From an uncultured Hormoscilla sp. (lineage in GTDB: Bacteria; Cyanobacteriota; Cyanobacteriia; Cyanobacteriales; Desertifilaceae), in NCBI GenBank assembly GCA_963921275.4, contig OZ001293.3, positions 4,480,001 through 4,544,000 of the forward strand: a DNA stretch of 64,000 nucleotides, written 5' to 3'. Every line of letters begins with the position of its first letter. Position 1 is the stretch's first letter. Under the pieces are notes generated by a model. That model was not told the origin of the DNA. It saw only the letters and a list, made by a program, of their open reading frames with translations, and did not search any database. A program made the position numbers and the translations under genes. Below are positions 1 to 58,067 of this stretch, one piece after another.

Positions 1-3000
1 GTTAGGGAATCTTTCCAATTTGGAGAATCTCCGGCTGTTCTCCAACCAACTGACTGGCAGCATCCCGACGGAGCTAGGGAATCTTTCCAATTTGGAGGAG
101 CTCGAGCTGTACTCCAACCAACTGACTGGCAGCATCCCGAAGGAGTTAGGGAATCTTTCCAATTTGCAACTTCTCCAGTCGTAGGGACTTTGTCTACTAC
201 CGACCCCGACGAGGGAGATAGCTTTACCTACATGCTTGGATCGGGCAACAATGCCTTTACTATAGTAGGGGACCAACTGCTAACTAACAGTTCTTTGGAC
301 TTTGAGACTCAGTCCAGTTACAGCATCCGCGTCCAGACTACTGACTCTGCTAATAACAGTTATTCGGAGGTCTTGACTATTAACGTGAATGATGTTCCCG
401 AACCTCCTACCTCCATAGTCTTTAGCAGCAGCAGCATCAACGAAAACTCTCCATTGGGTGCAGTCGTAGGGACTTTGTCTACTACTGACCCCGACGAGGG
501 AGATAGCTTTACCTACATGCTTGGATCGGGCAACAATGCCTTTACTATAGTAGGGGACCAACTGCTAACTAACAGTTCTTTGGACTTTGAGACTCAGTCC
601 AGTTACAGCATCCGCGTCCAGACTACTGACTCTGCTAGTAATAGTTTTGAGGAGGTCTTGACTATTAATGTGAATGATGTCGGCGAGTCTCCTACCGACC
701 TAGTCCTTAGCAACAGCAGCATTGATGAAAACTCTCCATTGGGTGCAGTCGTAGGGACTTTGTCTACTACCGACCCCGACGAGGGAGATAGCTTTACCTA
801 CATGCTTGGATCGGGCAACAATGCTTTTACTATAGTAGGGGACCAACTGCTAACTAACAGTTCTTTGGACTTTGAGACTCAGTCCAGTTACAGCATCTGC
901 GTCCAGACTACTGATGCTGGTGGGCTTAGTTACTCGGAGGCTTTTACTATTAATGTCAACGATGTCAACGAGTCTCCTACCGATCTAGTCCTTAGCAACA
1001 GCAGCATTGATGAAAACTCTCCTGATAATGCAGTCGTAGGGACTTTTTCAACTACCGACGAAGATAATGGAGATACCTTTACCTACCAGTTAGTCGGAGG
1101 CGACGATGCCTTTACTATAGTAGGGGACCAACTGCTAACTAACAGTTCTTTAGACTTTGAGACTCAGTCCAGTTACAGCTTCCGCGTCCAGACTACTGAT
1201 GCTGGTGGGCTTAGTTACTCGGAAGCCTTGACTATTAGCGTCAACAATGTCAACGAGTCTCCGACCTCCATAGTCCTTAGCAACAGCAGCATTGATGAAA
1301 ACTCTCCATTGGGTGCAGTCGTAGGGACTTTGTCTACTACCGACCCCGACGAGGGAGATAGCTTTACCTACATGCTTGGATCGGGCAACAATGCCTTTAC
1401 TATAGTAGGGGACCAACTGCTAACTAACAGTTCTTTGGACTTTGAGACTCAGTCCAGTTACAGCCTCCGCGTCCAGACTACTGACTCTGCTAGTAATAGT
1501 TTTGAGGAGGTCTTGACTATTAATGTTATTGATGAAGCAGAGAATTCTTCTCCTACCGATATAGTTCTTAGCAGCAGTAGTATTGATGAAAATTCTCCAT
1601 TGGGTGCAGTTGTGGGGACTTTCTCTACTACTGACCCCGACGAAGGAGATAGCTTTACCTACATGCTTGGATCGGGCAACAATGCCTTTACTATAGTAGG
1701 GGACCAACTGCTAACTAACAGTTCCCCTGACTTTGAGACCCAGTCCAGTTACAGCATCCGCGTCCAGACTACTGACTCTACTGGGAACAGTTACTCAGAA
1801 GCCTTGACTATTAGCGTCATTGATGTTCCCGAACCTCCGACCTCCATAGTCCTTAGCAACAGCAGCATTGATTCTAACTCCCCTGATAATGCAGTCGTAG
1901 GGACTTTCTCAACTACCGATCCTGACTCTTCCGATCCCTTTACCTACCAGTTAGTCACAGGCGACGGTGCCGATGATAACGACGCCTTCACCATAGAAGG
2001 GAACTCACTGCTAACTAACAGTTCCCCTGACTTTGAGACCCAGTCCAGTTACAGCATCCGCGTCCAGACTACTGACTCTACTGGGAACAGTTACTCAGAA
2101 GCCTTGACTATTAGCGTCATTGATGTTGCTGTAGAGAACTCCGATCCTATCGATATCGACCTCAGCAACAGCAGCATTGATGAAAACGTCTAAGTCAATA
2201 CTGTCGTAGGGACTTTCTCAACTACCGACCCTGACATTGGAGATACCTTTACCTACCGGTTAGTCGGAGGCGCTGGTGCCGATGATAACGCCGCTTTCAC
2301 CATAGTAGGGGACCAATTGCGAATTAATAGTTCTCCGGACTTTGAGACTCAGTCGAGTTACCTCATCCGCGTCCAAACTACCGACTCTGTTGGGGCCAGT
2401 CGCGAGGAGGCCTTCATGATTAACGTCAATGATGTTGCCGAGTTTCCTACCGACCTAGTTCTCAGCAACAATAGCATTAATGAAGACTCTCCATTGGGTG
2501 CAGTTGTGGGGACTTTCTCTACTGCTGATCCTGACGATGAAGATAGCTTTACCTACGAGTTAGTCTTCGGCAACAATGCTTTTACTATAGTAGGGGACCA
2601 ACTGCTAACTAACAGTTCTTTGGACTTTGAGACTCAGTCCAGTTACAGCCTCCGCGTCCAGACTACTGACTCTGCTAGTAATAGTTTTGAGGAGGTCTTG
2701 ACTATTAATGTCAACGATGTCGGCGAGTCTCCTACCGACCTAGTCCTTAGCAGCAGCAGCATTGATGAAAACTCTCCATTGGGTGCAGTTGTGGGAACTT
2801 TCTCTACTACTGACCCCGACGAGGGAGATAGCTTTACCTACATGCTTGTCTCCGGCAACAATGCCTTTACTATAGTAGGGGACCAACTGCTAACTAACAG
2901 TTCTTTGGACTTTGAGACTCAGTCCAGTTACAGCCTCCGCGTCCAGACTACTGACTCTGCTAGTAATAGTTTTGAGGAGGTCTTGACTATTAATGTTATT

Positions 3001-4850
3001 GATGAAGCAGAGAATTCTTCTCCTACTGATATAATTCTTAGCAGCAGCAGCATCAACGAAAACTCTCCATTGGGTGCAGTTGTGGGGACTTTGTCTACTA
3101 CTGACCCCGACGAGGGAGATAGCTTTACCTACATGCTTGTCTCCGGCAACAATGCCTTTACTATAGTAGGGGACCAACTGCTAACTAACAGTTCTTTGGA
3201 CTTTGAGACTCAGTCCAGTTACAGCCTCCGCGTCCAGACTACTGACTCTGCTAGTAATAGTTTTGAGGAGGTCTTGACTATTAACGTGAATGATGTTGCA
3301 GAGAATTCTTCTCCTACCTCCATAGTCCTTAGCAGCAGCAGCATCAACGAAAACTCTCCATTGGGTGCAGTTGTGGGGACTTTGTCTACTACTGACCCCG
3401 ACGAGGGAGATAGCTTTACCTACATGCTTGTCTCCGGCAACAATGCCTTTACTATAGTAGGGGACCAACTGCTAACTAACAGTTCTTTGGACTTTGAGAC
3501 TCAGTCCAGTTACAGCCTCCGCGTCCAGACTACTGACTCTGCTAGTAATAGTTTTGAGGAGGTCTTGACTATTAACGTGAATGATGTTGCAGAGAATTCT
3601 TCTCCTACCTCCATAGTCCTTAGCAGCAGCAGCATCAACGAAAACTCTCCATTGGGTGCAGTTGTGGGGACTTTGTCTACTAGCGATCCCGACGAGGGAG
3701 ATAGCTTTACCTACATGCTTGTCTCGGGCAACAATGCCTTCACCATAGTAGGGAACCAACTGCGAATTAACAGTTCCCCTGACTTTGAGACTCAGTCCAG
3801 TTACAGCCTCCGCGTCCAGACTACTGACTCAACTGGGGCCAGTTACTCGGAGGTCTTGATTATTAACGTCAACGATGTCGGCGAGTCTCCTACCGACCTA
3901 GTCCTTAGTAGCAGCAACATCAATGAAGATTCCCTATTGGGTGCAGTCGTGGAACTTTGTCTACTACCGATCCCGATAATGGAGATACTTTTACTTACCA
4001 GTTAGTCTCGGGCGACGGTGACGATGATAATGCTGCTTTCACTATAGTGGGGGACCAACTGCGAATTAACAGTTCTCCGGATTTTGAGACTCAGGAGATT
4101 TACAGGATATTCGTTCAGACTACCGACTCGACTGGGAAAAGTTACTCGGAGGCTTTGATTATTAATGTGAACAATGTTGCTGAGTCTCCTACTGATATAG
4201 TTCTTAGTAATGGCAGCATCAATTCTAATTCCCGCGCGGGTGCGATCGTGGGGACTTTCGGAACTAGCGATCCGGACGGGGGAAATACTTTTACCTATGG
4301 GTTAATCTCTGGTTTTGGTGACGATGATAACGCTGCTTTCACTATAGTAGGGGACCAACTGCTAATTAATAGTTCTCCGGCTTTGGAGATGAGGTCGAGT
4401 TACAGCATCCGCGTTCAGACTACTGACGTTACTGGGGCCAGTTACTCGGAGGCTTTGATTATTAATGTGAACGATGTTGCCGAATCTTTTACTGACCTTA
4501 ACTTCAGCAATACTCGTCAACCCCTAACTCTCAACCCCCAACCCCTAACTTTATCACTCTTTGAGAAGGAGGAGGAGGACACTCTGATCGGCGGGGAGGG
4601 AAGCGATCGCTTCTACGGAAACCATGGAAGCGATCGTCTCTACGAAGGATCAGAGGCCAATATTTTTGTTCTGGAGTCGGACATGATGGGTACTATCATA
4701 GACTTTGAAGATTATACGGACTTTATCAGGCTAGCAGGAGGTTCTCAGGGCCTCGATACCTGGATTAATTTTGAATCGAAAACCATGGCCACCCTGCAGG
4801 GGATTGATGAGACCCTGATTAATGTCGATGATTTCACTGTGGTTAATTGA
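1..4850 (+). pseudogene. Large LRR + ~15 cadherin-repeat surface protein with C-terminal RTX-like Ca-binding remnant; broken (5' part lies outside the window)
   Basis: Frame 2 from nt 2 reads [34 protein letters not shown] (24-aa plant-type LRR) and joins out of frame to cadherin repeats (TDPD..FTY, FTIVG, DFETQSSYSIRV, ~94-100 aa units) near nt 177. There is an in-frame TAA at 2191-2193 and a frameshift near 3950. GGEGSD/GNHGSD nonapeptide-like motifs lie near the end. Confidence 0.85.
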
Positions 4851-11718: not shown

Positions 11719-12589
11719 GGATGGGGTCGAGCCGGGAATCGCTTCCCGACCCTCCCTTTCGGAACCGGACTTGCGATTTTCACCGCATCCGGCTACTGGG
11801 TACTAGGCCCTTTTCATAGGTAGACTTAATAGGAATTACTTCCGTTAGCCCTTGCCGCCTGTCTTTTCTTCCCTTTCCTGGTTTAGCGAGTGGTTGTTCT
11901 GATAACCGTTAGTATCACCATTTTCAAGTCAGTTTTACCAGTTATCCATACCTTATCCTCCACTTGCGTTTCGGATTAGTTCCGTGGCTTTTTAGGATTA
12001 CTCATTCCAGCAGCTTCCTAGTATCACCGACCCACGTCAGCGCTGGCTACCCAGCATCATCTACATTACTGTAGATGTTATCCCAGGAATTACCCCGGGC
12101 ATTCGCTTCTTGGGCCATCCCTCCCCCCGTGGCTTGCGCTTAACATCTAACTTGTCCTGATGGACAGCACACGAGAGGTTACTTCGTTCCCTAACAACAT
12201 TTCGCGATACCTTTAGGTCCACACTATACCCCGGGAGCTATTTGAGTACTATATTAGCCAGAGTCTAAAACTAATACTAGCTACCATTTCCTTTTTAGGC
12301 CAGCGCATATAGCCTTATTTCGCTGGTTCCTTATAACGAGGCTTGCACATGTTTGCCTGCTCTAACCTTGGATATCTTTCCTAGCGGCGTCACCGGCTTA
12401 GGCTGCCAGTTATCCTACATTTGAGTCCTCGCTTAGCACCACGATGATGTCGCTTCGTAGCACCGAGGACCGGTGTCACCCCCGTACCTGGGGGGAGGGG
12501 AATTTAACCCCCATGCGGTCAGAGTTCCCGGCTAATGAAACCGGGCTAGCGTTCCGTGTTTGACCACGTTAGGCTAGAACGAATCGCAC
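11719..12589 (-). ncRNA. ORF-less group II intron I1 (IIB/chloroplast-like type), full length, 871 nt, intergenic and antisense to flanking genes
   Basis: The minus strand starts GTGCGATTCGTTC. D5 is AGCCGGATGCGGTGAAAATCGCAAGTCCGGTT and D6 has a bulged A (…GCTCGACCCCATCC). EBS1 AGACTC pairs perfectly with the 5' exon GAGTCT. No RT ORF. The 3' end is 11721 if the canonical AY is used. Confidence 0.93.
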
Positions 12590-19736: not shown

Positions 19737-19840
19737 CTTGCCTGTTTTGGGGGAGCCAAACCGGCGCTCACCCTTATTGCTCGCAGCTTGCGATCGCCTT
19801 GCAGCTTGCGATAACCTTTGACGGACGATCGCTTAAGTAA

Positions 19841-19914
19841 CGGGGCTGATGGGATTTGAACCCATGACCTAGCGCTTAGGAGGCGCTCGCTCTCTCCAAC
19901 TGAGCCACAGCCCC
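19841..19914 (-). tRNA. tRNA-Arg (CCT)
   Basis: GGGGCTGTGGCTCAGTTGGAGAGAGCGAGCGC-CTCCTAA-GCGCTAGGTCATGGGTTCAAATCCCATCAGCCCCG forms a cloverleaf. Confidence 0.95.
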
Positions 19915-20016
19915 ACATACTCAAGTCTAGCAAGATTTCTCCGATCAGACAAGTTCTTGTCAAATACAATTACTCAGACAACCAAGCTTCGTCCCAAGGA
20001 CCGCCGCCTACTTCTA

Positions 20017-20103
20017 GTTAGGGGTCGAGCTGGGAATCGCTTCGGAACCCTCCCATTCGGAACCTGAAGAGCGACTTTCACCGCACACGGCTACTGGGTA
20101 GTT
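20017..20103 (-). ncRNA. Group II intron 3' remnant I2 (end of D4, D5, D6 only)
   Basis: AGCCGTGTGCGGTGAAAGTCGC…GGTTCC D5 and D6 ending GCTCGACCCCTAAC. Confidence 0.88.
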
Positions 20104-20617
20104 GGTCTTCGCCATTGGCGATCGCGTGAGGGTCGAGGTTGTTGGTGAAATAGATGTGACCCAGCTCCTGACCATTGTAGGTTCTTTTGCTAAAGCGCCA
20201 ACCTGGATTGAGTTCAATTTTGACGAAATCTTTTTTGACGCCGTTGGTGCGACCAATTTCCAGTTCTGGGGCATTGCGGTCATCGGGAACTCCCAGGAGA
20301 ACCAGATCCCCATTCCGTTCCTGGACGCGGAGACTGTATTTCAAGGCCATGTCAAGACCCGCCGTCCGGATGGAGAAGCCATTACTGTCCACATCGCGTC
20401 CGCAAATCCCAGTGAAGTCAAAATTTAGCAGTAATGGGTCTACAAGGGTTGTCCCGTCAGCTTGTGGCTTTTCACTCCAGCAAGCACGTTGGTTAGATTT
20501 TTTTTCCAGCACGAACAGTTGATAACCAACAATACCGCGAGGTGCAGCAATTGCGATAAAGTTGTCTTGGTCAACTTCCCGTTGGGCAAAAGTTGAAGCC
20601 ACAGATGGGGCGATTAC

Positions 20618-20840
20618 CTGAGGGGGCGACATGAGCACTCAAACGCTTACTAGATAAGGCTTTGAGGCTAATTTGCTCCTACTTGATACAGTCGCCAATT
20701 GACCATTCTTTCATTTTTATGAAGCTCAAACCCTTATAAATACGTCGTCTGTCGGCCCAAAACAGCATGGATATTGTTGGAGATTATGGGCTGGAATCCT
20801 TACGCTCGTAAGGATTTCAGCAGGCATGTCGCCCCCTCAG
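20618..20840. mobile_element. 223-bp MITE, copy 1
   Basis: Perfect 16-bp TIR CTGAGGGGGCGACATG; 9-bp TSD GGCGATTAC (20609-20617 / 20841-20849); no ORF. Confidence 0.93.
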
Positions 20841-22372: not shown

Positions 22373-22966
22373 CCAATCTCACCGATTTTATCCAATAGCA
22401 CGTCAGCGCCTTGTAAGTCGTGGGCTTGGCCAGGGGTAAGATGAAATCCTGTGGGATTGCCTTGGGCAATCGCAAGTGGCATGAATCTTTGTCGATAGTC
22501 CCCCTTTACTACGGCCTATGGCTTGGGTTTCGCACGTATCTGAGGGTGTTTTTTTTGCACCCGCACGCTCGTTGATGGGCACGCAGGATGGTGGCATCAA
22601 TCGCGGCGTATTCGTTATCGGCGTCTGAGGCCAAGACATCGAATACCTGCTTCCAAACTCCCTTTTCAGACCAACGGGTATGGCGGGTATGAACAACCCG
22701 AAAATCCCCAAAACACTCCGGTAAATCCCGCCAGGGAATGCCAGCACGATATCGATATAACACGGCAGAACACGAATAATCTATTGTTCTTGGCTGTAGC
22801 GCCTGGGTCACCCTCTTTACCAGGTAAAAGGTGTTCGATCCGTTCCCACTGGTCGTCTCGCAAGCCATAGCGTCTCATATCATGCCCTCTTGATTGTTAT
22901 TGCTGGATAAGGACTCCATACCGTATCCATCTATTTCTGTCAAGCAATTTGATTGATGACACACCC
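22373..22966 (-). mobile_element. Partial IS5-family element (left end plus orfA and start of orfB)
   Basis: Near-identical to 33121-33717, including the same orfA frameshift; one TIR GGGTGTGTCATCAA. Confidence 0.88.
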
Positions 22967-24183: not shown

Positions 24184-24354
24184 ATCAGCAACAACAATGT
24201 CTCGAACAACTTGCACCTTCCTTGGAAGGACGGACTTCATGGAGAGCAAAACCCTTACCCCCTAGCTTCTTTGTCGGGTAAGAGAGGACACGTCACCGTG
24301 CCTCCCTCCCCTAAGAACCGGACTTGACAGTTTCCCATCATCCGGCTCAAGCCT

Positions 24355-24510
24355 CTAAACCTCAGAATGTTTACCTTGACCGTTCTGGGTTGCACGATAT
24401 ATTCTCTGTCTCAGGTTTCTAACAGGCTTCAACACGAGTTTCCAATCAATGGACCCCCAGTCTAAAGAGCGTTCCTTCATTCCGATGTCATTGCTGACCC
24501 TATCTTTCAT
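24355..24510 (-). pseudogene. N-terminal remnant (51 aa) of a group II intron-encoded RT/maturase in D4 of I3
   Basis: [45 protein letters not shown] resembles the W..IDW…V..L..RI.RA N-terminus of chloroplast-like IEPs. Confidence 0.8.
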
Positions 24511-24975
24511 GTCGGTTCGATTCCTTTACAAGTTTTCTATCGTTGGAGACCTGCTGAAGTCTGCCATCTTTCGATGTAGGGCAAATCTTGAACCCCTATC
24601 CCTAGCATTACCAAGGGCTTTCGCTTTTTCTAGCATCCTTTACCCTCTAGGTAGTTCCGTCTTCCTTAGGGTTGACCTACTCATATCATCGACCTGACCT
24701 GAGAACCTATAGGGTTTACCCTGTTCCGTACATTTAACCTTCAACCGATTCGGATTCCACCTATATTCCGGTGAGGATTTTGCTCTCTCGTTATTAGCCC
24801 AAGGTACTGCTAATAACTTACTCACTTGCCTTTTGGCTAGACTGTATCAGCCTTATTTCACTCTTCAGACATAACGGAATTTGCAGTGATTCACAAATGT
24901 TAACCCTTTTCGGTTTTCCCCTTGCCCTTTTGCCGATTTCGGCTCTCAGTCGGAGGGCTTTCATGCCTTGCATTC

Positions 24976-25356
24976 ATTAGGGGTCGAGCTGTCCCTCGCG
25001 GGACAACCCTCCCGTTCGGAACCGTGCATGCGACTTTCACCGCACACGGCTACTGGGTACCAGGCCCTTTTCATGGGTAGGATTACTGGGGATTACTCCC
25101 GTTGTCCCTTACTACTTGCATGTTTGCCCCTTTCCTGGTTGGTGAGTGGCGCTGCCAGAAAACCTTTAGGATCACCATTTACACATCCGTTTTACCAGTA
25201 ATACATTCCGAAATCCTCAACTCGCTTGCGCTGACGCTGTGGACGGGCTTATGACATTTTAAGGCTACTTATATCAGTAGTTTCCTGATATCACCGACCC
25301 GCGTCAGCGTATCCGTGGGCATTACCCCAGGCATTAGCTTCTCGGGCCATCTTTCC
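24976..25356 (-). ncRNA. 5'-truncated ORF-less group II intron I4 nested in D1 of I3
   Basis: J2/3-D3 (GGAAAGATGGCCCGAGAAGCTAATGCC), D4, D5 AGCCGTGTGCGGTGAAAGTCGCATGCACGGTT, end GCTCGACCCCTAAT. Confidence 0.88.
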
Positions 25357-25445
25357 GTCACACACCTTGGGCAACTTGGGTCATTGCTCGATTGGGTGGC
25401 TGCGGAACGGCTATCGCTCACAACGTCCTCCAGGAATGTCTACCC

Positions 25446-28783: not shown

Positions 28784-30227
28784 ATGTCTCTGTGCGATTC
28801 GTTCTAGCCTAACGTGGTCAAACACGGAACGCTAGCCCGGTTTCATTAGCCGGGAACTCTGACCGCATGGGGGTTAAATTCCCCTCCCCCCAGGTACGGG
28901 GGTGACACCGGTCCTCGGTGCTACGAAGCGACATCATCGTGGTGCTAAGCGAGGACTCAAATGTAGGATAACTGGCAGCCTAAGCCGGTGACGCCGCTAG
29001 GAAAGATATCCAAGGTTAGAGCAGGCAAACATGTGCAAGCCTCGTTATAAGGAACCAGCGAAATAAGGCTATATGCGCTGGCCTAAAAAGGAAATGGTAG
29101 CTAGTATTAGTTTTAGACTCTGGCTAATATAGTACTCAAATAGCTCCCGGGGTATAGTGTGGACCTAAAGGTATCGCGAAATGTTGTTAGGGAACGAAGT
29201 AACCTCTCGTGTGCTGTCCATCAGGACAAGTTAGATGTTAAGCGCAAGCCACGGGGGGAGGGATGGCCCAAGAAGCGAATGCCCGGGGTAATTCCTGGGA
29301 TAACATCTACAGTAATGTAGATGATGCTGGGTAGCCAGCGCTGACGTGGGTCGGTGATACTAGGAAGCTGCTGGAATGAGTAATCCTAAAAAGCCACGGA
29401 ACTAATCCGAAACGCAAGTGGAGGATAAGGTATGGATAACTGGTAAAACTGACTTGAAAATGGTGATACTAACGGTTATCAGAACAACCACTCGCTAAAC
29501 CAGGAAAGGGAAGAAAAGACAGGCGGCAAGGGCTAACGGAAGTAATTCCTATTAAGTCTACCTATGAAAAGGGCCTAGTACCCAGTAGCCGGATGCGGTG
29601 AAAATCGCAAGTCCGGTTCCGAAAGGGAGGGTCGGGAAGCGATTCCCGGCTCGACCCCATCCAACCATTGCCGACCTAGAACAACTCCAAACCCAATTGG
29701 CTGATGCCCATCTTGATTACAAGATGGAATTAGTCGATGGTAAAATTATCATTATGGGACTTTCAGATTATCTTTCTGAAGAAATCATCGCTCGATTAAT
29801 CACTTTTCTCAATATCTGGATACTTCCCCGCAAGTTGGGACGAGTCACTGGTTCTTCTGCTGGCTTCAGACTGCCCGATGGCAACTTGCGCGGACCTGAT
29901 GTCTCTTTTGTCCCCGCTGAGAAAATGCGTCAATCTCCTAGGAGTTTTGCGGAAATTGTACCAGACTTGATGTTTGAAGTTAGGTCTTCTACAGATAATG
30001 TTAGACCACTATTACAGAAAATCCAGAGATTTATCGAATTGGGGACGCAAGTTGGCATATTTGTAGACCCCAAAAATTTGACCGTAACTGTTTATCGTCC
30101 TACTGCCGAACCTATTCTGCTCAAAGATGATGATATCTTAACTATACCCGAATTCTTGCCCGGTTGGGAATTGCCCATTGACCAAATCTGGCCTCCAGTT
30201 TTTGCACCAGAAAATATTCAACCGTAA
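28784..30227 (+). CDS. Uma2/DUF820-family endonuclease split by intron I5 (exon 1 28784-28791; exon 2 29663-30227)
   Basis: GGAG RBS, then ATG TCT CT | A ACC ATT GCC gives MSLTIADLEQLQ…ELVDGKIIIMG…GFRLPDGNLRGPDVSF…PDLMFEVRS. Confidence 0.8.
28792..29662 (+). ncRNA. ORF-less group II intron I5, full length, apparently identical to I1
   Basis: GTGCGATTCGTTC … GCTCGACCCCATCC; same length, and by eye the same sequence as the reverse complement of 11719-12589. Confidence 0.93.
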
Positions 30228-30381: not shown

Positions 30382-31210
30382 TTATGAATCTTTCCTGACT
30401 TTAACAATGGGCATGTCTTCAGGTGCGATCTCCTGGAACCCTAACTTCTTCAGTTTATTGAGGGCTTTTTCTGCTGGAGAATTATCTTCTTCCGCTGGTG
30501 CAACCGCCGCTGTTTCCCAAGTCTGGACGAGTTCAGCTAAGGCGTATTCTAATTGCGCCCCCGGATCTAATGTTACCCAACCTTCGGAGGTCAGTTCCCG
30601 CAGTTCAAAGTGCAGGTGCGGTCCTGTGGAATAGCCGCTGCTGCCCACACTGCCGATTATACTGCCTTGCTTGACTTCTTCTCCAGGTTGGACGAAGATT
30701 TCTGATAGGTGCGCGTACAGGGTTTGTTGAAGGGGTTTCTCTGGTTGGGCATGTTCTAGCACAACTGATAACCCATAGCCTTTCAGGGCGTCCGCGATTG
30801 CGACTTTTCCGGCCAATGCTGCTAACACTGGGGTCCCCGATATCCGTGCCGTGGTGGAACTGTTCCGATCCTGAGATCGGATGGGTCCGCCAACCAAACA
30901 AGGAAGTAATCGGTGAGGGAATTGATAAGGGAAAGATGATGCTATCATTGCCACGATCGGGACGGAGGTTGGGTCGAATCAGCTGATAGTAACTGCGACC
31001 TATGGGCGTTGCATCCCCATATTCGATCTCACTGGGACTGTAACTTGCTGGTCCGAGATTTACTTCCCCCCCTGGTGATTTTTGGCCTTGGCAAGGCCCG
31101 CTGATGCTGCGGCCTCCATACCGGGATGGGAGCTGATTTGGGACGCCAAACCGGTGGCTGGTAACTTGTCCTGGATCTTACGGTCACTGGTGCTGGTGGC
31201 GGGCGGAGCC
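30382..31210 (-). pseudogene. M23 peptidase (NlpD-like), frameshifted and 5'-truncated
   Basis: ITSLFGWRTHPI…HHGTDIG and TPVLAA…TLYAHLS…STGPHLHFE lie in different frames. Confidence 0.85.
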
Positions 31211-33092
31211 ACATCGCCGTGGTGCTAAGCGAGGACTCAAATGTAGGATAGCTGGTAGCCTAAACCGGTGACTCCGCGCTTGTTAGATGCCCAAGGTTAG
31301 AATAAGCGAACCTATGTAAACTTCGTAAATGGGAACCGGCGAAATAAGGCTTTATGCGCCGGAGACAAAAGTCAATGTAGTTAGTGTTAGTTTTGTACTT
31401 TGGCTAACATCGTACTCGGATAACTACCGGAGGAAAGTAGGGGCCTAAAGGTATCGTGAAATGATATCAGGGAACGAAGTAACCTCTCGTGAGCTGTCCT
31501 CATATGGACAAGTTAGATGTAAAGCGCAAGCCACGAGGGGAGAGATGGCCCAAGAAGCTAATGCCTGGCGGTGTCTGGAGCATGCCGTATCCCTTGCGGG
31601 AGCGCCAGCCGTTCGCGGCAGCGCGGCGCCAGCCGTGTCCTTCAGGACAAGAGCATGCGGAAGACGCCGGGTAATTCCTATGGATATGCTGACGTGGGTC
31701 GGTGATAGATAGAATCTTTGGGTGAAAGTAGCCTTAAATGTTCTAGACCAGGAGAAATCCTAGGTAGTTAATTTTGGACTAAAGACCTAACCGGGTAAAA
31801 CTTGGAGAACCTAGTAAATTAACTCAAGTTGCGACCTATAAAAATTGGATACAAAAAGCTATGATAAAGAGAATTATTTTCAACTCTAATCCCTTAGATG
31901 TAACAGCATGAATTGACTTGGGAAACAAATTTGTGATTCGACTAAAACAGGTTTCAACTTGTTTTCTTGTTACTTTTTGTATATATTCAAAACAAGAATA
32001 TTCTTTTCTTTTTGAGTTCTTTTTTCGCAAAGGTTTTAACATTATACTTGACGACTCTTTTAGTAAATCCTCTAATTGATAATCATTATAAGCTTTATCT
32101 CCATAAACTATTGAATTTGATGGTAAGTCAAAGCCAAAAGATTGCAAAACTTTAACATCATTATAACTACCAAGATCTAGATAAAATTATATTGGCTTTC
32201 CATTTTTGTTTACCAACATATGAACTCTTAATCCATAAAAATAACGTTTTTTACTGGCAATATACCCTCGATATTCTTCCTTGTTATAAATTTGGCATCT
32301 ATCAATCCTAATATTATCACATACTGGCACCGGGAAACTATCAAGAATATATTCTTGACCCGGATTGAGCTCTTTAAATGTTTGAGCTATAACTTGGAAG
32401 AAAAACATCCAAATTGGTTCCTCAATATTGTGTAATCGACGATTGAACCTACTTTTACTTAACAGATTTTTTATATACTTGTGTTGGACCATAAATTGAC
32501 AAGAGCGATCGTGGTGTCCTCCGAAAAAATATGCAGCAACTAATCCGACTGTCATCACTTCGGCATTGTTCATTTTTACTTGTGGATCTTCTTTTATATT
32601 TAACGCTTTTAGTAGCTCGTCACAAAGAACAAAAATTGTTGTAATCATATCTTCCATCATCTACATCCCCCAGCAATTAACTATTATTTTAGTACATTAT
32701 AACCTATAAACAGCCAACCCGCCGTCTAGCACAAAAAAAATATAATTTTGTATCAAAAGCTACGAAATATCCCAAATATCTGTAAAGTCTAAGTGGGTAA
32801 TTCATATTTTTTTAATAGGTCGCAACTTAGGTTAAATTAGGTAAATGTTAGTAAAGAGCGGTCTATATGGGTTGGTACTGTTATCCCCCGCGAACCTTCC
32901 GGAGTTAAGCATTTATCTAGTCTGAGACTAACCATAAGGGGTTCCATTGCATGAGGAAAGGAACAAAGGGAGTAATCCTGAGTAATTCTACCCATGACAA
33001 GGGCTATCTACCCAGTAGCCGTGTGCGGCTCCAGTCGCATGCACGGTTCCTCAAGGGAGGGTCGGGAGGCGACAATAGGCTCGACCCCGACT
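31211..33092 (+). ncRNA. 5'-truncated ORF-less group II intron I6 with an IS982 insertion in D4
   Basis: Homologous to I5 from ~nt 140; EBS1 loop GTACTT; D3 GGCCCAAGAAGCTAATGCC; D5 AGCCGTGTGCGGCTCCAGTCGCATGCACGGTT (loop mutated); end TCGACCCCGACT. Confidence 0.87.
31822..32832 (-). mobile_element. IS982-family element, copy 2 (nonsense codon at 32187)
   Basis: Same TIRs as copy 1; TSD TAAATTA; transposase split into 32187-32660 and 31836-32147. Confidence 0.92.
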
Positions 33093-33120
33093 TCCTTAGT
33101 CTATGACTTTTTTAAGGCTA

Positions 33121-33993
33121 GGGTGTGTCATCAATCAAATTGCTTGACAGAAATAGATGGATACGGTATGGAGTCCTTATCCAGCAATAACAATCAAGAG
33201 GGCATGATATGAGACGCTATGGCTTGCGAGACGACCAGTGGGAACGGATCGAACACCTTTTACCTGGTAAAGAGGGTGACCCAGGCGCTACAGCCAAGAA
33301 CAATAGATTATTCGTGTTCTGCCGTGTTATATCGATATCGTGCTGGCATTCCCTGGCGGGATTTACCGGAGTGTTTTGGGGATTTTCGGGTTGTTCATAC
33401 CCGCCATACCCGTTGGTCTGAAAAGGGAGTTTGGAAGCAGGTATTCGATGTCTTGGCCTCAGACGCCGATAACGAATACGCCGCGATTGATGCCACCATC
33501 CTGCGTGCCCATCAACGAGCGTGCGGGTGCAAAAAAAAACACCCTCAGATACGTGCGAAACCCAAGCCATAGGCCGTAGTAAAGGGGGACTATCGACAAA
33601 GATTCATGCCACTTGCGATTGCCCAAGGCAATCCCACAGGATTTCATCTTACCCCTGGCCAAGCCCACGACGGGAAAGGCGCTGACGTGCTATTGGATAA
33701 AATCGGTGAGATTGGCGCGCTGCTTGCAGATAAAGCCTATGATGCGGAACAACGTGTGCTCGAGCGCCTGAAAGAGGCGGATTGGATGGCTGTCATTCCT
33801 CCAAAAAGTAACCGCACAGAACACAGAGAATACGATGAAGAAATGTACAAGTGGCGGCATCTAATTGAAAATCTATTCCAAAAACTCAAGCAATACAGGG
33901 CTCTGGCGACACGCTACGATAAAACGGCTCGCAATTTCTTGGGTGCCATCTACCTCGCGGCAGCTGTAATATGGCTTAATTGATGACACGCCC
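33121..33993 (+). mobile_element. IS5-family element (frameshifted orfA)
   Basis: TIRs GGGTGTGTCATCAAT / ATTGATGACACGCCC; TA duplication; [14 protein letters not shown] and …RALATRYDKTARNF. Confidence 0.92.
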
Positions 33994-34001
33994 TAGTTTC
34001 T

Positions 34002-35387
34002 GGTCGGGGTCGAGCTGTCCCTCGCGGGACAATCCTCCCATTCGGAACCTGAAGAGCGACTTTCACCGCACACGGCTACTGGTTGGTAAACCCTTGTCAC
34101 GGGTAGGATTACTAGGGATTACTCCCGTTGTCCCTTGCCCTATGAAATATAGCCCCTTTATGGTCAGTCATGAACTAGTTGAGTACCTAACTCCGGAAGG
34201 TTTACGGGGGAGAACTAGAAAACCACTATGACCGTTCTTTACTAACAGGTGCCCGTATGGGGCCTCTAAATTTTTTACCCGGTTAGGATTTCAGTCCATC
34301 ATTACTACCTAGTGTTGCCACTGGTTAAGCACGTTTAGAGGGCTACTATCTCCTAGAGCTTTTTACCATATCCGTCCTACGTCTGCATATCCACAGGCAT
34401 TACCCCGGGCATTAGCTTCTTAGGACCTCCCTCCCCACGCGGGCATGCGCTAGGCGCTGCGCGCACGCTACGACGCACATCTGACTTGTCCATCTGGACA
34501 GCACCGCTCTTGTCCGGAACGTTCCCTGGTATCATTTCACGAGGCTTTTAGGTCTCCCCTATACACCGGCAGTCATTTCGGGTACGATATCAGTGACTTT
34601 CACCGCACACGGCTACTGGGTAGTTGGTCCTTGTCACTGGTAGGTAACTTCGGGATTACTCCCGTTGTCCCTCGTCTCATGAGATTTGGCCCCTTGAGCT
34701 TATCCATCTCTGACAGGTTTCCCCCGAGCTGTAGGCATATTTAGGGCTACTTTTACCCAAGACTTCCAACTATCACCGACCGACGTCTGCATATCCCAGG
34801 CGTTACTCCGGGCATTTGCTTCTTAGGCCATCTTTCCCATTCGCGGCTTGCGCTTCACATCTGACTGGTCCTTTAGGACAGTACACGAAGGGTTACTTCG
34901 TTCCCTGGTCTCATTTCACGATGCCTTTAGGCCCCTACTTTTCCCCGGCAGTTATTTGGGTACAATGTTAGCCAATTCCCTAACTAACACTAACTGCATT
35001 AACTTTTGTTCCAGCGCATTAAGCCTTATTTCGCTAGTTGGGTTTAACGAGGTTTACATAGGTTCGCTTGTTCTAGCCATGGACATCATCGAGCGCGAAG
35101 TTACCGGCTTAGGCTGCCAGCTATCCTACATTTAAGTCCTCGCTCAGTACCACGGTGATGTTACTCCGCAGCGCCGAGGACCGGTGTTACCCCCGTACCT
35201 GGGGAGGGGGAATTAAACCCCCATGATTACCAGAGTTCCTAGTTTCCTAGGCCAGCGTTCCGTATATGACTACGTTAGGCTGGAACTCATCGCACGGGAA
35301 TTTAACCCTCATGGCACCAAAGTTACCTGGCACATAAGACCAGGCCCGATTTTCACCATTACTGGTTTACATCAGAACGAGTCGCAC
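34002..35387 (-). ncRNA. ORF-less group II intron I7, outer member of a twintron, internally deleted
   Basis: 5' GTGCGACTCGTTC at 35387 (92 nt before I8); 3' part ~34595-34002 with D1 end, D2-D6, and terminus GCTCGACCCCGACC. Confidence 0.85.
34595..35295 (-). ncRNA. ORF-less group II intron I8 nested in D1 of I7; lost the 3' half of D5 and D6
   Basis: Starts GTGCGATGAGTTCC; EBS1 GGGAAT pairs with the preceding ATTCCC of I7; breaks off after AGCCGTGTGCGGTGAAAGTC. Confidence 0.87.
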
Positions 35388-54705: not shown

Positions 54706-54900
54706 GGCTCGGGTGCGGCTCGGGTGCGGCTCGGGTGTGGCTCGGGTGCGGCTCGGGTGTGGCTCGGGTGCGGCTCGGGTGCGGCTCGGGTGTGGCTCGG
54801 GTGCGGCTCGGGTGTGGCTCGGGTGCGGCTCAACCTCGGCTCAACCTCGGCTCAACCTCGGCTCAACCTCGGCTCGACCTCGGCTCAACCTCGGCTCGGG
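54706..54900. repeat. 11-bp tandem array: ~11x GGCTCGGGTG(C/T), then ~6x GGCTCAACCTC
   Basis: Direct inspection. Confidence 0.9.
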
Positions 54901-55337: not shown

Positions 55338-56618
55338 ATGAGTTACTGTATCAACCCCCAATTGCCCCAATCCTCAAAACTCTGACAACCAGCTATTTGG
55401 CGCTGCTTGCGGTTCGGAATTACTCCTAGAAGGACAATATCGCATCCTGGGCAAACTAGGCGGCGGTGGTTTTGGCACTACCTATGAGGTAGATGACCCG
55501 AAACAACTGCCGGTATAAAGGAGAGACCTAAAAGCCTCGCGAAATGATACTAGGGAACGAAGTAACCCCTCGTGAGCTGTCCAGTAGGACCAGTCAGATG
55601 TGAAGCGTAAGCCACGAGTGGGAAAGATGGCCCGAGAAGCTAATGCCTGGGCGGTGTCTGGAGCATGCCGTGTCCTTCAGGACAAGAGCCCGGTGTCTGG
55701 AGCGTACCGATGGCGCTACGCTGGGCGCGCAGCGCATGTCCTTCAGGACAAGAGTACGCTCCAGACACCGGAGCGGAAGACGCCGGGTAATGCCCATGGA
55801 TACGCTGACGCGGGTCGGAGATATCAGGAAGCTACTGGTTGAAAGTAACCCTAAAAGGTTATAAACCATGCACAATTAGTGACATAGGGATAAATAACTG
55901 GTAAAACGAGCGAGTAAATGGTGATCCCTTAAGGTTTCTCGGCTGCACCAATCACCAACCAGGGAAGGGGCCAAATTGCAAGTAGTAAGGGCCAACGGTG
56001 AGCAATCCCTAGTAAGCCTATCCATGACAACGGACCTGGTACCCAGTAGCCGGATGCGGTGAAAATCGCACGTCCGGTTCGGAATGGGAGGGTTGGGAAG
56101 CGATTTCCAGCTCGACCCCGACTGGAACGGCAAAGGTTTTGAAAGTCCTGCATCTGAACGAACCCAAAGCTATCTCCCTATTTCAGCAAGAAGCAAAGGT
56201 ATTAGAACAGTTGCATCATTCAGGGATTCCCAAGGTTGACCCTGATGGCTATTTTACCTTTGTTCCCAGAAGCAGCCAAGAGCCCCTGCACTGCTTAGTC
56301 ATGGAAAAAATTGAGGGAGAAGATTTGCAGAATTGGCTAGAAAAACGAGGACGCCCTATCAGTCAAAAGTTAGCACTCAAATGGCTGACTCAGCTAGTAG
56401 AGATTCTCGATGAGGTACATCAGAAGCATTTTTTCCATCGGGATATCAAACCGCCCAATATCATGCTGCGCCCCAGCGGACAACTAGCATTGATTGATTT
56501 CGGCACGGTTAAAGAAATCACGGCTATCTACATGGCAAATGTGAATGCAGGACAGCCAGGTACTGTTGTTTATTCTAGGGGTTATGCGCCAACGGAGCAA
56601 GAAAACGGTCATACATTG
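55338..56618 (+). pseudogene. Ser/Thr protein kinase with N-terminal Cys motif; frameshifted, split by intron I9, truncated by an IS
   Basis: MSYCINP…LGGGGFGTTYEVDD | GTAKVLKVL…HRDIKPPNIM…LIDFG…GYAPTEQ. Confidence 0.88.
55498..56123 (+). ncRNA. 5'-truncated ORF-less group II intron I9
   Basis: End of D1 (GGGAACGAAGTAA), D2, D3, D4, D5 AGCCGGATGCGGTGAAAATCGCACGTCCGGTT, end CTCGACCCCGACT. Confidence 0.9.
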
Positions 56619-58067
56619 CTTACCACCCCTCAGTTTTCCAGCGAGCCCATAGAGGGGGGACCGGGAGTCCATGACGAATCACTCGAATAATCAGACGAAG
56701 TCCAGTGGTAAACAAAGAACACCAAGAACGGAAGCGTTTTGAAGGAGACTTGGGTAAAGGCGTCTCATCACTCATACCAGCAGATGTAGACCAATACATC
56801 GCTAGTGCCATAACCAAAATCAAACGTTCAATACGATCTGCATGCTCAAGTTGAGTTTCAGTAATGCCAAAACCTCTGGTTTTGAAATCCGAAAACATGG
56901 GTTCAATTCCCCAACGAATCCCATAATCTCGTGTTTTGTATTCGGAGGCAGGACAATCCAGAGCTACGATCCAAGGTTCGTCATAGCCAGGGTCTTGAAG
57001 TATACCAATATTAGTTTTTACTTCTTTCTCGTTAAAGCAAGCTCCATTCGAGATTTTTACTCCCAGTGCTGCGGCATCTCTACCAGTAATTTCTCCTCCT
57101 TGGTGTTGGAAAATCAGGTTACCCTTCAGGCGAATCCGGTAACTCCATTGATGATTTTGACACCATTCTACCATCGATGGCGTGCCATAGAATCTGTCAG
57201 CCATCAACAAGATGGAAAAATCTTCAGACAGCATCTGGTATACTTTTTCTAGTAATTGCTTTTCCTCTGAGAACCCTATAGCTCCCTTGGTTTTTTTTAC
57301 ATACCATAGCAATGGCAAAGACCTCCCCCCCATACTGACACTCACCATCAGCACTTCAAAGCCATTTCCCACTTTGCTTTGATCCAATATTAGGAGCAAC
57401 TGCTCTCCATAAGCGGTCATGTTCTCACACAACTCTCTTCCGTAAGAAGCCATTACCAAAGTAACGTCCACTTCGTCACTTGCGAGAAATCTGCTGATAT
57501 ATTGATAGCGTTTTTCATTGTGCTTGATGGGACGGGGTAGTGTGGCGGCCAAGACCATTAGATTGGCAGTTCTCTCTGACAACATGCAACTGACCAAATT
57601 TGCCAAACCTAGTCGCCTAGGTTTACTTAAGCCTGTATCTCGCTGTTCGATATCTGCTAAGATATCGGAGCAAATTTTCGGAATTCCGCCTGATTCCATG
57701 TTGTCAATAAAACTGTGTTTTTTTTCGTTGGGCTCTCCTGCGTTTATCGTAGTAAATGTATCACAAAATACAAATATAGCGGGACAAAAAGGCTGAAACC
57801 CTTGATTTTGTGTGAATATAAGTTTGACTTATCACCCAAAAGGCCGGAGACCCTTCGTTGTCTATTAACGCACGTGGATAACTAGTATTTTTGCTGAGTC
57901 CCCAATTGGGAGATGCTCTCCGTTTTTCTGACTAGACAAATATTTCCATGTATTAATGATCGATCCATAAAAACTCTTTGGAATCAACAATCCATCTCAT
58001 CCCCTAATTGTGCAACGGCTTTTTTTGTACTCTTGGGAATCATAGCAGAATTTTGAGGGGTGGTAAG
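56619..58067 (-). mobile_element. IS4-like DDE element with a 359-aa transposase (56620-57699)
   Basis: 14-bp TIR CTTACCACCCCTCA / TGAGGGGTGGTAAG; LILDQS, LMADRFY, YGIRWGIEPMFSDFK motifs; no TSD seen. Confidence 0.85.

Follow-up and report, generated by a model that had tools for sequence, protein, structure and literature searches.

Where does a group II intron end when neither the distance from its presumed branch point to the 3' splice site nor its terminal dinucleotide conforms to the usual pattern? The question is raised by I5, an intron without an open reading frame (ORF) that is inserted after base 8 of an Uma2-family endonuclease gene, in a 64-kb stretch of DNA from an uncultured Hormoscilla sp. 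(contig OZ001293.3 of assembly GCA_963921275.4, positions 4,480,001 to 4,544,000; "the window" below means this whole stretch of 64,000 nt). The branch adenosine of group II introns normally lies 7-8 nt from the 3' end. A 3' boundary of the form AY (Y denoting a pyrimidine) is stated as a rule in the passages available from PMC4424553 and PMC4238363. Positions 29640-29670 of the window, which comprise the 3' strand of domain VI, the 3' junction and the first exon bases of the intron, had been singled out in a first-pass annotation as a shifted, non-canonical 3' splice site lying 9 nt from the bulged A. The present analysis confirms the 9-nt, non-AY ends as an observation and supports their interpretation: these introns probably constitute an ORF-less group IIB family whose members terminate four bases beyond four consecutive C, with the branch A at -9, and in which the last intron base and the first exon base are set by the gamma-gamma' and EBS3-IBS3 pairings (EBS and IBS, exon- and intron-binding sites).

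The 3' border of the intron in the Uma2 gene

The strongest constraint on the border comes from intron-free orthologues of the interrupted gene. A search of a protein collection with exon 2 alone (29664-30227), a query that includes no junction sequence, recovered 1040 proteins at E <= 1e-10 among 1173 candidates, and the PF05685 (Uma2) domain is present in all 120 listed proteins. Three of them begin with MSLTIADLEQ, namely a 190-residue protein with 98% identity to the query (P0002), a protein of Hormoscilla sp. GM102CHS1 with 95% identity (P0003), and a protein of Hormoscilla sp. SP12CHS1 with 100% identity over 90% of the query (P0004). More generally, MSL directly precedes a T[IV]xDLE-type motif in 46 of the 120 listed proteins, and a start of the form M-x-x-motif is seen in 83; the motif pattern missed 16 of the 120, and one of the 120 is the window's own ORF (P0001). 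Exon 1 (28784-28791 of the + strand; ATGTCTCT, that is, ATG TCT CT) encodes Met, Ser and two bases of Leu, and when it is joined to points 6 to 11 nt after the bulged A, only the 9-nt join (28791|29663) yields MS|LTIADLEQ. The join at 6 nt is in frame with an extra Pro, while those at 7, 8, 10 and 11 nt leave 5-14 codons open in the ATG frame. Since only 28791|29663 gives the start seen in the orthologues, I5 is 871 nt long and ends in ACCCCAUCC, with the putative branch A at -9 and CC as its last two bases. Were the cut made canonically, after CCCCAU, the mRNA would retain CC and lose a frame that is intact in the sister strains. The alignment with intron-free Uma2 orthologues had been named beforehand as a check of the proposed border, and at the protein level it upholds the 9-nt border as the one that restores the Uma2 start.

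A second copy, I1 (11719-12589, - strand), is identical to I5 over 871/871 nt at an unrelated locus. All that the two loci have in common is UCU ahead of the intron and A behind it, and the identity stops after CC and this one shared A, which is the first base of exon 2 at I1 (A11718). I1 is flanked by genes for an acyltransferase and for PspA/IM30, which lie on the opposite strand, and was rejected as a frame test, being intergenic and antisense to its neighbours. For I5 and I1, comparison with the N-termini of the intron-free orthologues shows a 9-nt, non-AY end. This result bears on an alternative in which AY is always kept and the spacing varies instead, with AU at 7 nt in I1 and I5, AC at 8 nt in I6, I7 and I9, and AU or AC at 9 nt in I2 and I4. 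An AY is indeed present at one of those positions in each copy, and alignments to the RF00029 model end at those AY positions; however, a 7-nt end of I5 puts the gene out of frame and is at odds with the MSLT start of the orthologues, and the CC is common to I1 and I5 at their two unrelated loci. We consider this alternative unlikely, and the copies in which it fares best are taken up below.

With its borders fixed by the orthologue N-termini and its 5' end taken at GUGCG, I5 occupies 28792-29662 (+) as an ORF-less group IIB intron (5' GUGCGAUUCG ... ACCCCAUCC 3'). It is followed by exon 2 (29663-30227, +), whose first base, A29663, serves as IBS3 and completes the Leu codon, and a GGGAG stands 14 nt upstream of the ATG of the gene. 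The 5' boundary consensus GUGYG is present as GUGCG at 28792, 12589 (-) and 35295 (-). Domain V (29587-29618, +) was located through RF00029 and by folding, and the domain VI helix GGGAGGG...CUCGACCC (29625-29657, +), also seen in the fold, has a 1x2 internal loop and a layout that fits the RF00029 consensus; its upper helix covaries among the copies and their relatives. The bulged A sits in this loop, facing GA, an arrangement that the RF00029 consensus has and that recurs in all the relatives together with the 5' strand GGGAGGG; in I5, however, it lies at -9 rather than at the canonical 7-8 nt. From A29654, which we infer to be the branch point from its place in domain VI, the sequence runs to the last intron base (29654-29662, +), with C29662 as gamma'. 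In its fold the tail of I5 also pairs with J5/6, but this pairing was rejected as it does not recur in other copies.

Among the exon-binding elements, EBS1 (AGACUC, 29115-29120, +) occupies the terminal loop of the ID3 hairpin, with U29114 (+) as candidate delta, and a stem-less single strand, AGGAAA (29089-29094, +), is a putative EBS2. The A-U-A of the coordination-loop strand lies at 29154-29156 (+), with U29155 as the proposed EBS3, and the J2/3 triplet GGA at 29261-29263 (+), where G29261 would be gamma and pair with C29662. EBS1 of I1 and I5 pairs at 6/6 positions with GAGUCU, the last six bases before I1, and the candidate EBS2 forms 6 bp, of which one is G.U, with the UUUCUU that precedes I1, as against 4/6 at I5. 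The assignment of the EBS1 loop is backed by the copy I8, in which GGGAAU pairs at 6/6 positions with AUUCCC before the intron, and an IBS1-EBS1 pairing is also present in the plasmid-borne introns L120 and that of Acaryochloris. At the I5 site EBS1 can pair at only four of six positions (three adjoining the splice site and position -6), which suggests that I5 is an ectopic insertion.

The border may lie at 9 nt and the geometry of domain VI nevertheless be unaltered, if GGG pairs with the last three C of the run, so that the bulge takes in two bases, the A and the first C, and a 4-nt tail is kept. The relatives that encode a reverse transcriptase (RT) lend this possibility some weight, having CCC and UAAC with the same GGG 5' strand, from which the window family differs by one C; and the passages available from PMC6868427 describe an exchange of one- and two-base bulges in domain VI. 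On the other hand, the same source ties the two-base bulge to a branching-inactive sugar pucker, and in the minimum-energy folds of three of the four four-C copies folded (I5, I4 and L120) it is the first three C that GGG pairs with, so that 5 nt stay unpaired, while I9 folds in another domain VI register. We hold the two-base bulge to be possible but doubtful. The earlier suggestion of an altered 3' splice-site geometry stands in part: the 9-nt end is supported, while the geometry would come down to one extra C, and the two-base bulge would preserve the 4-nt tail.

Pairings at the 3' splice site across the copies

A motif search of both strands found CTCGACCCC exactly seven times in the window, each copy after a domain V, and all seven read CUCGACCCC followed by four bases. 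From the bulged A to the end the copies read ACCCCATCC in I1 (11727-11719, -) and I5 (29654-29662, +), ACCCCTAAC in I2 (20025-20017, -), ACCCCTAAT in I4 (24984-24976, -), ACCCCGACT in I6 (33084-33092, +) and I9 (56115-56123, +), and ACCCCGACC in I7 (34010-34002, -), exactly as the first-pass annotation had given them. Its observation that the ends are often CC or CU likewise holds under the 9-nt border, with CC in I1, I5 and I7 and CU in I6 and I9; an AY terminus is found only in I2 and I4.

The elements facing these ends were assigned by aligning I5, I6, I7, I8 and I9 from domain I to domain III and using the motif coordinates. The J2/3 triplet before domain III is GGA in I1, I5 and I7 and AGA in I4, I6, I8 and I9, and the CCGG..A-N-A-G strand has AUA in I5 and I7 as opposed to AAA in I6, I8 and I9. 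Textbook models (ai5-gamma numbering) place gamma at the start of the J2/3 triplet. The J2/3 junction is quoted as A287-G288-C289 in the passages available from PMC6868427. Gamma-gamma' was scored on eight distinct introns, namely I5 (representing also I1), I4, I6, I7, I9 and three plasmid-borne relatives: L120, the Acaryochloris intron and L124. With the border four bases after the C-run the pair is Watson-Crick in 8/8, as against 2/8 for a border one base earlier, 2/8 one base later and 0/8 (one G.U) two bases earlier. The EBS3-IBS3 pair is Watson-Crick at ten of eleven insertion sites (U:A, A:U, G:C), compared to three of eleven for a border one base earlier, and the only miss is I9. Both relationships had been proposed from the window's own copies, with the mismatch in I9, and both persist when the plasmid relatives are added; the statement that the unrelated intron I3 obeys the same rules is also borne out (GGA, AUA and ACCCGAC|A). 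Chance does not account for these regularities.

Over the last 140 nt, copies that are nearest neighbours have opposite gamma states: I5 (G:C) and I9 (A:U) are 84% identical, and I4 (A:U) and I7 (G:C) 85%. This implies at least two compensated switches, or recombination that preserved the pairing. Across the eight four-C copies (seven in the window and L120) position 9 is always a pyrimidine, while position 10 reads A,A,U,G,U,A,G,U. These covariations, which include sequences from three other cyanobacterial genera, support the 9-nt end for the family as a whole.

Taken together, these patterns suggest that ORF-less introns of one chloroplast-like (IIB) family have proliferated in this stretch of a sponge-symbiont-like cyanobacterial genome. 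The intron RNA would end four bases after the four-C run that follows the bulged A of domain VI, placing this A at -9. Its last base, C or U, would be fixed by a Watson-Crick pair with the first base of J2/3 (G or A), and the first base of exon 2 would pair with EBS3, the middle base of the A-N-A strand in the coordination loop. The penultimate base would be free, being A in UAAC and UAAU and C in GACC, GACU and AUCC. Relative to the RT-encoding introns, in which CCC and a 4-nt tail place the A at -8, one extra C would have moved the branch A to -9, and L120 likewise has CCCC. The RNA would probably splice as a lariat with the help of a maturase acting in trans.

The case is thinnest for the copies with GACY tails, I6, I7 and I9, where the 8-nt AC end is disfavoured by covariation only and a 9-nt end is what we infer from it. 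In these copies the 9-nt end satisfies 5/6 pairings and the 8-nt end 3/6: ending at 8 nt would set gamma A opposite C in I6 and I9 and EBS3 U opposite C in I7, while EBS3 of I6 fits either end as positions 9 and 10 are both U. In I9 the two indicators diverge, gamma favouring the 9-nt and EBS3 the 8-nt end, and the latter agrees with the alternative in which AY is kept, the kinase frame around I9 being compatible with it as well. The homologues of this kinase mostly read DDxGTAKVLKVL, and both CC+U (8-nt end) and CCG (9-nt end) supply x; no orthologue of the kinase region above ~75% identity was found. At its 5' junction I9 shares 4-6 nt of microhomology, ACCC(G), with the kinase exon.

The AY-based borders also have a practical side. 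RF00029 detects I5 and I1 at 46.4 bits, I9 at 50.1, I4 at 43.9 and the unrelated I3 at 58.5, against a gathering threshold of 40; I6 is sub-threshold at 29.9 bits, and I2 and I7 give no match. The match to I5 covers 29584-29660, so that the model stops 2 nt short in I5 (29660) and I1 (11721), 1 nt short in I9 (56122) and I6 (33091), and is exact in I4 (24976). The forecast that automated callers would misplace these borders by 1-2 nt thus holds for four of the five family copies detected, and models that assume AY at 7-8 nt set the 3' borders of such introns 1-2 nt early. In intron-rich cyanobacterial genomes border errors of this kind lead to false frameshifts and pseudogene calls. An artefact of annotation caused by the intron is P0001, a 209-residue ORF call (29598-30227, +) that starts with GTG inside domain V and reads MKIASPVPKGRVGKRFPARPHP and then TIADLEQ.... 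Proteins reading through an intron 3' end could not be sought, as the open stretches are only 20-28 residues long and too short as queries.

State and surroundings of the copies

The remaining copies are incomplete. I2 (20017-20100, -) is a domain V-VI fragment ending ACCCCUAAC|U. Four others are 5'-truncated: I4 (24976-25370, -, 5' limit approximate; J2/3 AGA at 25352-25350) ends ACCCCUAAU|G; I6 (31204-33092, +, 5' limit approximate; J2/3 AGA) ends ACCCCGACU|U and carries in domain IV an AT-rich insertion-sequence-like insert at ~31830-32830; I7 (34002-34593, -; J2/3 GGA), in which domain V pairs are broken, ends ACCCCGACC|A; and I9 (55496-56123, +, 5' limit 55496-55501; J2/3 AGA), located in a decayed Ser/Thr kinase gene, ends ACCCCGACU|G. 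I8 (34595-35295, -; J2/3 AGA) is instead 3'-truncated and breaks off inside domain V.

This state of preservation invites the explanation that the non-AY ends reflect decay in dead copies and carry no functional meaning. The truncations, the insert in I6, the domain V damage in I2 and I7 and a neighbourhood full of insertion sequences and pseudogenes all speak for it. Nevertheless, the CC-ended intron is full length and present in two identical copies, and the terminal base covaries with gamma in all eight distinct introns scored. Furthermore, in target-primed reverse transcription a 3' junction that arose through reverse splicing preserves the terminus of the active RNA, whether or not the copy is 5'-truncated. 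Decay thus appears to be a quite improbable account of these ends, and a conserved 9-nt end remains the preferred reading.

Several points nonetheless weigh against that reading. Its support comes from DNA and protein sequence, so that splicing and the branch point are deduced rather than observed. The empty site is seen as protein and not as DNA, and in the intron-free alleles the Leu residue does not fix the last base of its codon; under the 9-nt end the DNA of an intron-free Uma2 allele would read ATGTCTCTAACCATT. Given its poor EBS1 pairing, I5 may have inserted ectopically and splice inefficiently. Five of the eight family copies (I8 included) are 5'-truncated, namely I2, I4, I6, I7 and I9; in I2 and I7 the same two pairs of domain V are broken, and neither gives an RF00029 match even at E <= 1. 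Within the GACY group, I7 is uninformative for gamma, having C at both positions 8 and 9, while EBS3 of I9 (A) mismatches the +1 G at the 9-nt end and pairs with the position-9 U at the 8-nt end, and either end restores the frame of the surrounding kinase equally well. Finally, the sample is small, its copies are possibly recombinant, and the tallies of pairings and of positions 9 and 10 were made by eye.

With regard to the history of the copies, the five 5'-truncated ones keep an intact 3' junction, a pattern expected from abortive target-primed reverse transcription. I2 and I7 share substitutions in the 3' strand of domain V (GCACGG -> UUCAGG; 20040-20100 and 34030-34090, both -), and their differing tails (UAAC versus GACC) suggest that they are mosaic or recombinant copies. 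I8, with its 5' end at 35295, is inserted in domain I of a further family member whose 5' end, GUGCGACUCG, lies at 35387 (-); nested in this manner, and with a perfect IBS1-EBS1 pairing (AUUCCC/GGGAAU), it is a relic of a twintron. Its breakpoint at 34595 is where the 5'-truncated I7 begins.

Unrelated to the family, I3 (24273-24975, -) is a 5'-truncated group II intron whose end, ACCCGAC, is canonical. In its domain IV (24380-24535, -) an RT-like ORF is reduced to its first ~50 codons, a stretch that we take to be an RT N-terminus, and with this assumption I3 is an ORF-deleted derivative.

The surroundings of the copies are rich in insertion sequences and pseudogenes. The AT-rich element in domain IV of I6 (31830-32830) contains fragments of a DDE-transposase on the minus strand, and a second insertion sequence, at 33110-34000 between the 3' ends of I6 and I7, has DUF4096 and DDE_Tnp_1 ORFs and inverted ends TAGGG(T/C)GTGTCATCAAT; a DUF4096 ORF at 22509-22868 is near-identical to the one in this element. 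The Ser/Thr protein kinase gene that contains I9 (55338-56690, +) is decayed, with a frameshift after MSYCINPQ and the intron after the glycine loop, and is truncated by a DDE transposase gene (56620-57699, -). Adjoining arrays of two 11-nt tandem repeats, GGCTCGGGTGC x 11.5 and CGGCTCAACCT x 6.5, occupy 54706-54897 (+) downstream of a short ORF. The I2 fragment follows a DUF3747 gene (20078-20638, -), and a tRNA-Arg (CCU) gene (19840-19915, -) lies ~100 nt downstream of it.

Relation to other group II introns

A blastn search of plasmids with full-length I5 gave no match at E <= 1e-5, and a 14-base domain V pattern searched in 596 Gb of contigs returned at least 119 loci that were chance matches only, none of the 119 having a group II domain V-VI in a motif check. 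The relatives L120-L130 were found from plasmids with shorter domain V-VI queries and with the sequences of the relatives themselves. One of them is L120, an ORF-less intron of Chondrocystis sp. NIES-4102 plasmid3 (2252-3079), which shares the four-C domain VI and the 9-nt end (ACCCCUAAC|U). Its J2/3 triplet is GGA and its A-N-A strand AAA, so that gamma (G:C) and EBS3 (A:U) are both paired only under the 9-nt end. L120 differs in having a canonical AC end, and only its domain V-VI can be aligned with I5 by blastn.

The RT-encoding introns of Acaryochloris (L123, L125, L126 and L130) end ACCCUAAC|U with GGA and AAA, and the intron of a Leptolyngbya boryana plasmid (L124) ends ACCCUAAC|C with GGA and AGA. 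With the window family they share the 5' GUGCGAUUCGUU, the A-N-A strand and the domain VI GGGAGGG...CUCGACCC, and their GGA in J2/3 and 4-nt tail UAAC are those of family members. In contrast to the window family they have three C and not four, the A at -8, a canonical AC terminus and an RT ORF in domain IV, and they resemble I5 only in domain V-VI and in short core motifs. That these RT-encoding relatives end in ACCCUAAC makes the 4-nt tail a feature of the clade. The Acaryochloris intron is 99.9-100% identical at four or more plasmid sites, with a +1 U at all four that were fetched, and a gene for a protein with a double-stranded RNA-binding motif lies just upstream on the opposite strand at three of these four (L123, L126 and L130). 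By our reading of the sequences, the other group II introns retrieved have the A at -7 (I3, L121, L122, L127 and probably L128) or at -8 (L129).

The class affinities of the family are suggested by two leads. Plastid domain V matches to RF04356 reach only 26-35 bits against a threshold of 61, and the 5' consensus GUGCGAUUC is shared with Tr.e.I7, a IIB2 intron of Trichodesmium erythraeum; these two leads point to a chloroplast-like class (CL2 / IIB2). The passages available from PMC4649490 describe Tr.e.I7 as having this consensus, a stem-less EBS2 and an EBS3, and as having ORF-less neighbours, with many copies that depend on trans-acting maturases; no intron-encoded protein of the window family is present in the 64-kb window. 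This likeness to a fellow cyanobacterial intron is one of description, and the passages in question name no shifted or non-AY end. In the literature searched, a 9-nt spacing, this family and Hormoscilla group II introns were not found, although Simon et al. 2008, the Calgary database and supplements lay outside the coverage and could list such ends.

Exceptions to AY are nonetheless on record. The only 3' exceptions mentioned in the passages available from PMC4424553 are class B introns of the B.c.I4 type, whose splice site is likewise off the canonical AY; however, there it is displaced by 50-70 nt through an added domain ("domain VII"), whereas the shift in the window family is of 1-2 nt within the domain VI tail. 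The nearer parallel is RmInt1 of Sinorhizobium meliloti (class D / IIB3). The portions of PMC4238363 available to us report that it too ends in CC and not AY, that its last base pairs with a J2/3 purine and its first exon base with an EBS3 in the ID(iii)-ID(iv) internal loop, that every substitution at its penultimate position impaired the second step of splicing, and that it is the sole exception at this position. A Sinorhizobium plasmid intron considered as RmInt1 was rejected, having a canonical ACCCGAC end and a 563-residue intron-encoded protein.

The CC terminus is therefore already known from RmInt1, one studied precedent in a different class, and the present family is best supported as a modest but real variant of a well-known ribozyme, with one extra C and a dispensable penultimate A. 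Going further, one might tentatively envisage that a cyanobacterial chloroplast-like lineage dropped the near-universal penultimate A, that the contact of the first with the penultimate base was replaced (e.g. by G1:C) or lost, and that the longer domain VI tail leaves the choice of the splice site to gamma-gamma' and EBS3-IBS3. If so, the paralogues ending in AC, AU, CC and CU would form a natural allelic series for the second splicing step, independent of RmInt1. The interest of the family is moderate, and lies mainly in annotation and in such a natural series for second-step studies. RmInt1 differs from it in class and in phylum, in encoding its own protein, and in that its terminal CC runs into two exon C. 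Unlike RmInt1, the window family has CC, CU, AC and AU ends coexisting among close copies; as another lineage, unrelated to RmInt1, in which AY and CY ends occur side by side in near-identical ribozymes, it would offer a clean test of the roles of the penultimate base and of tail length in second-step fidelity.

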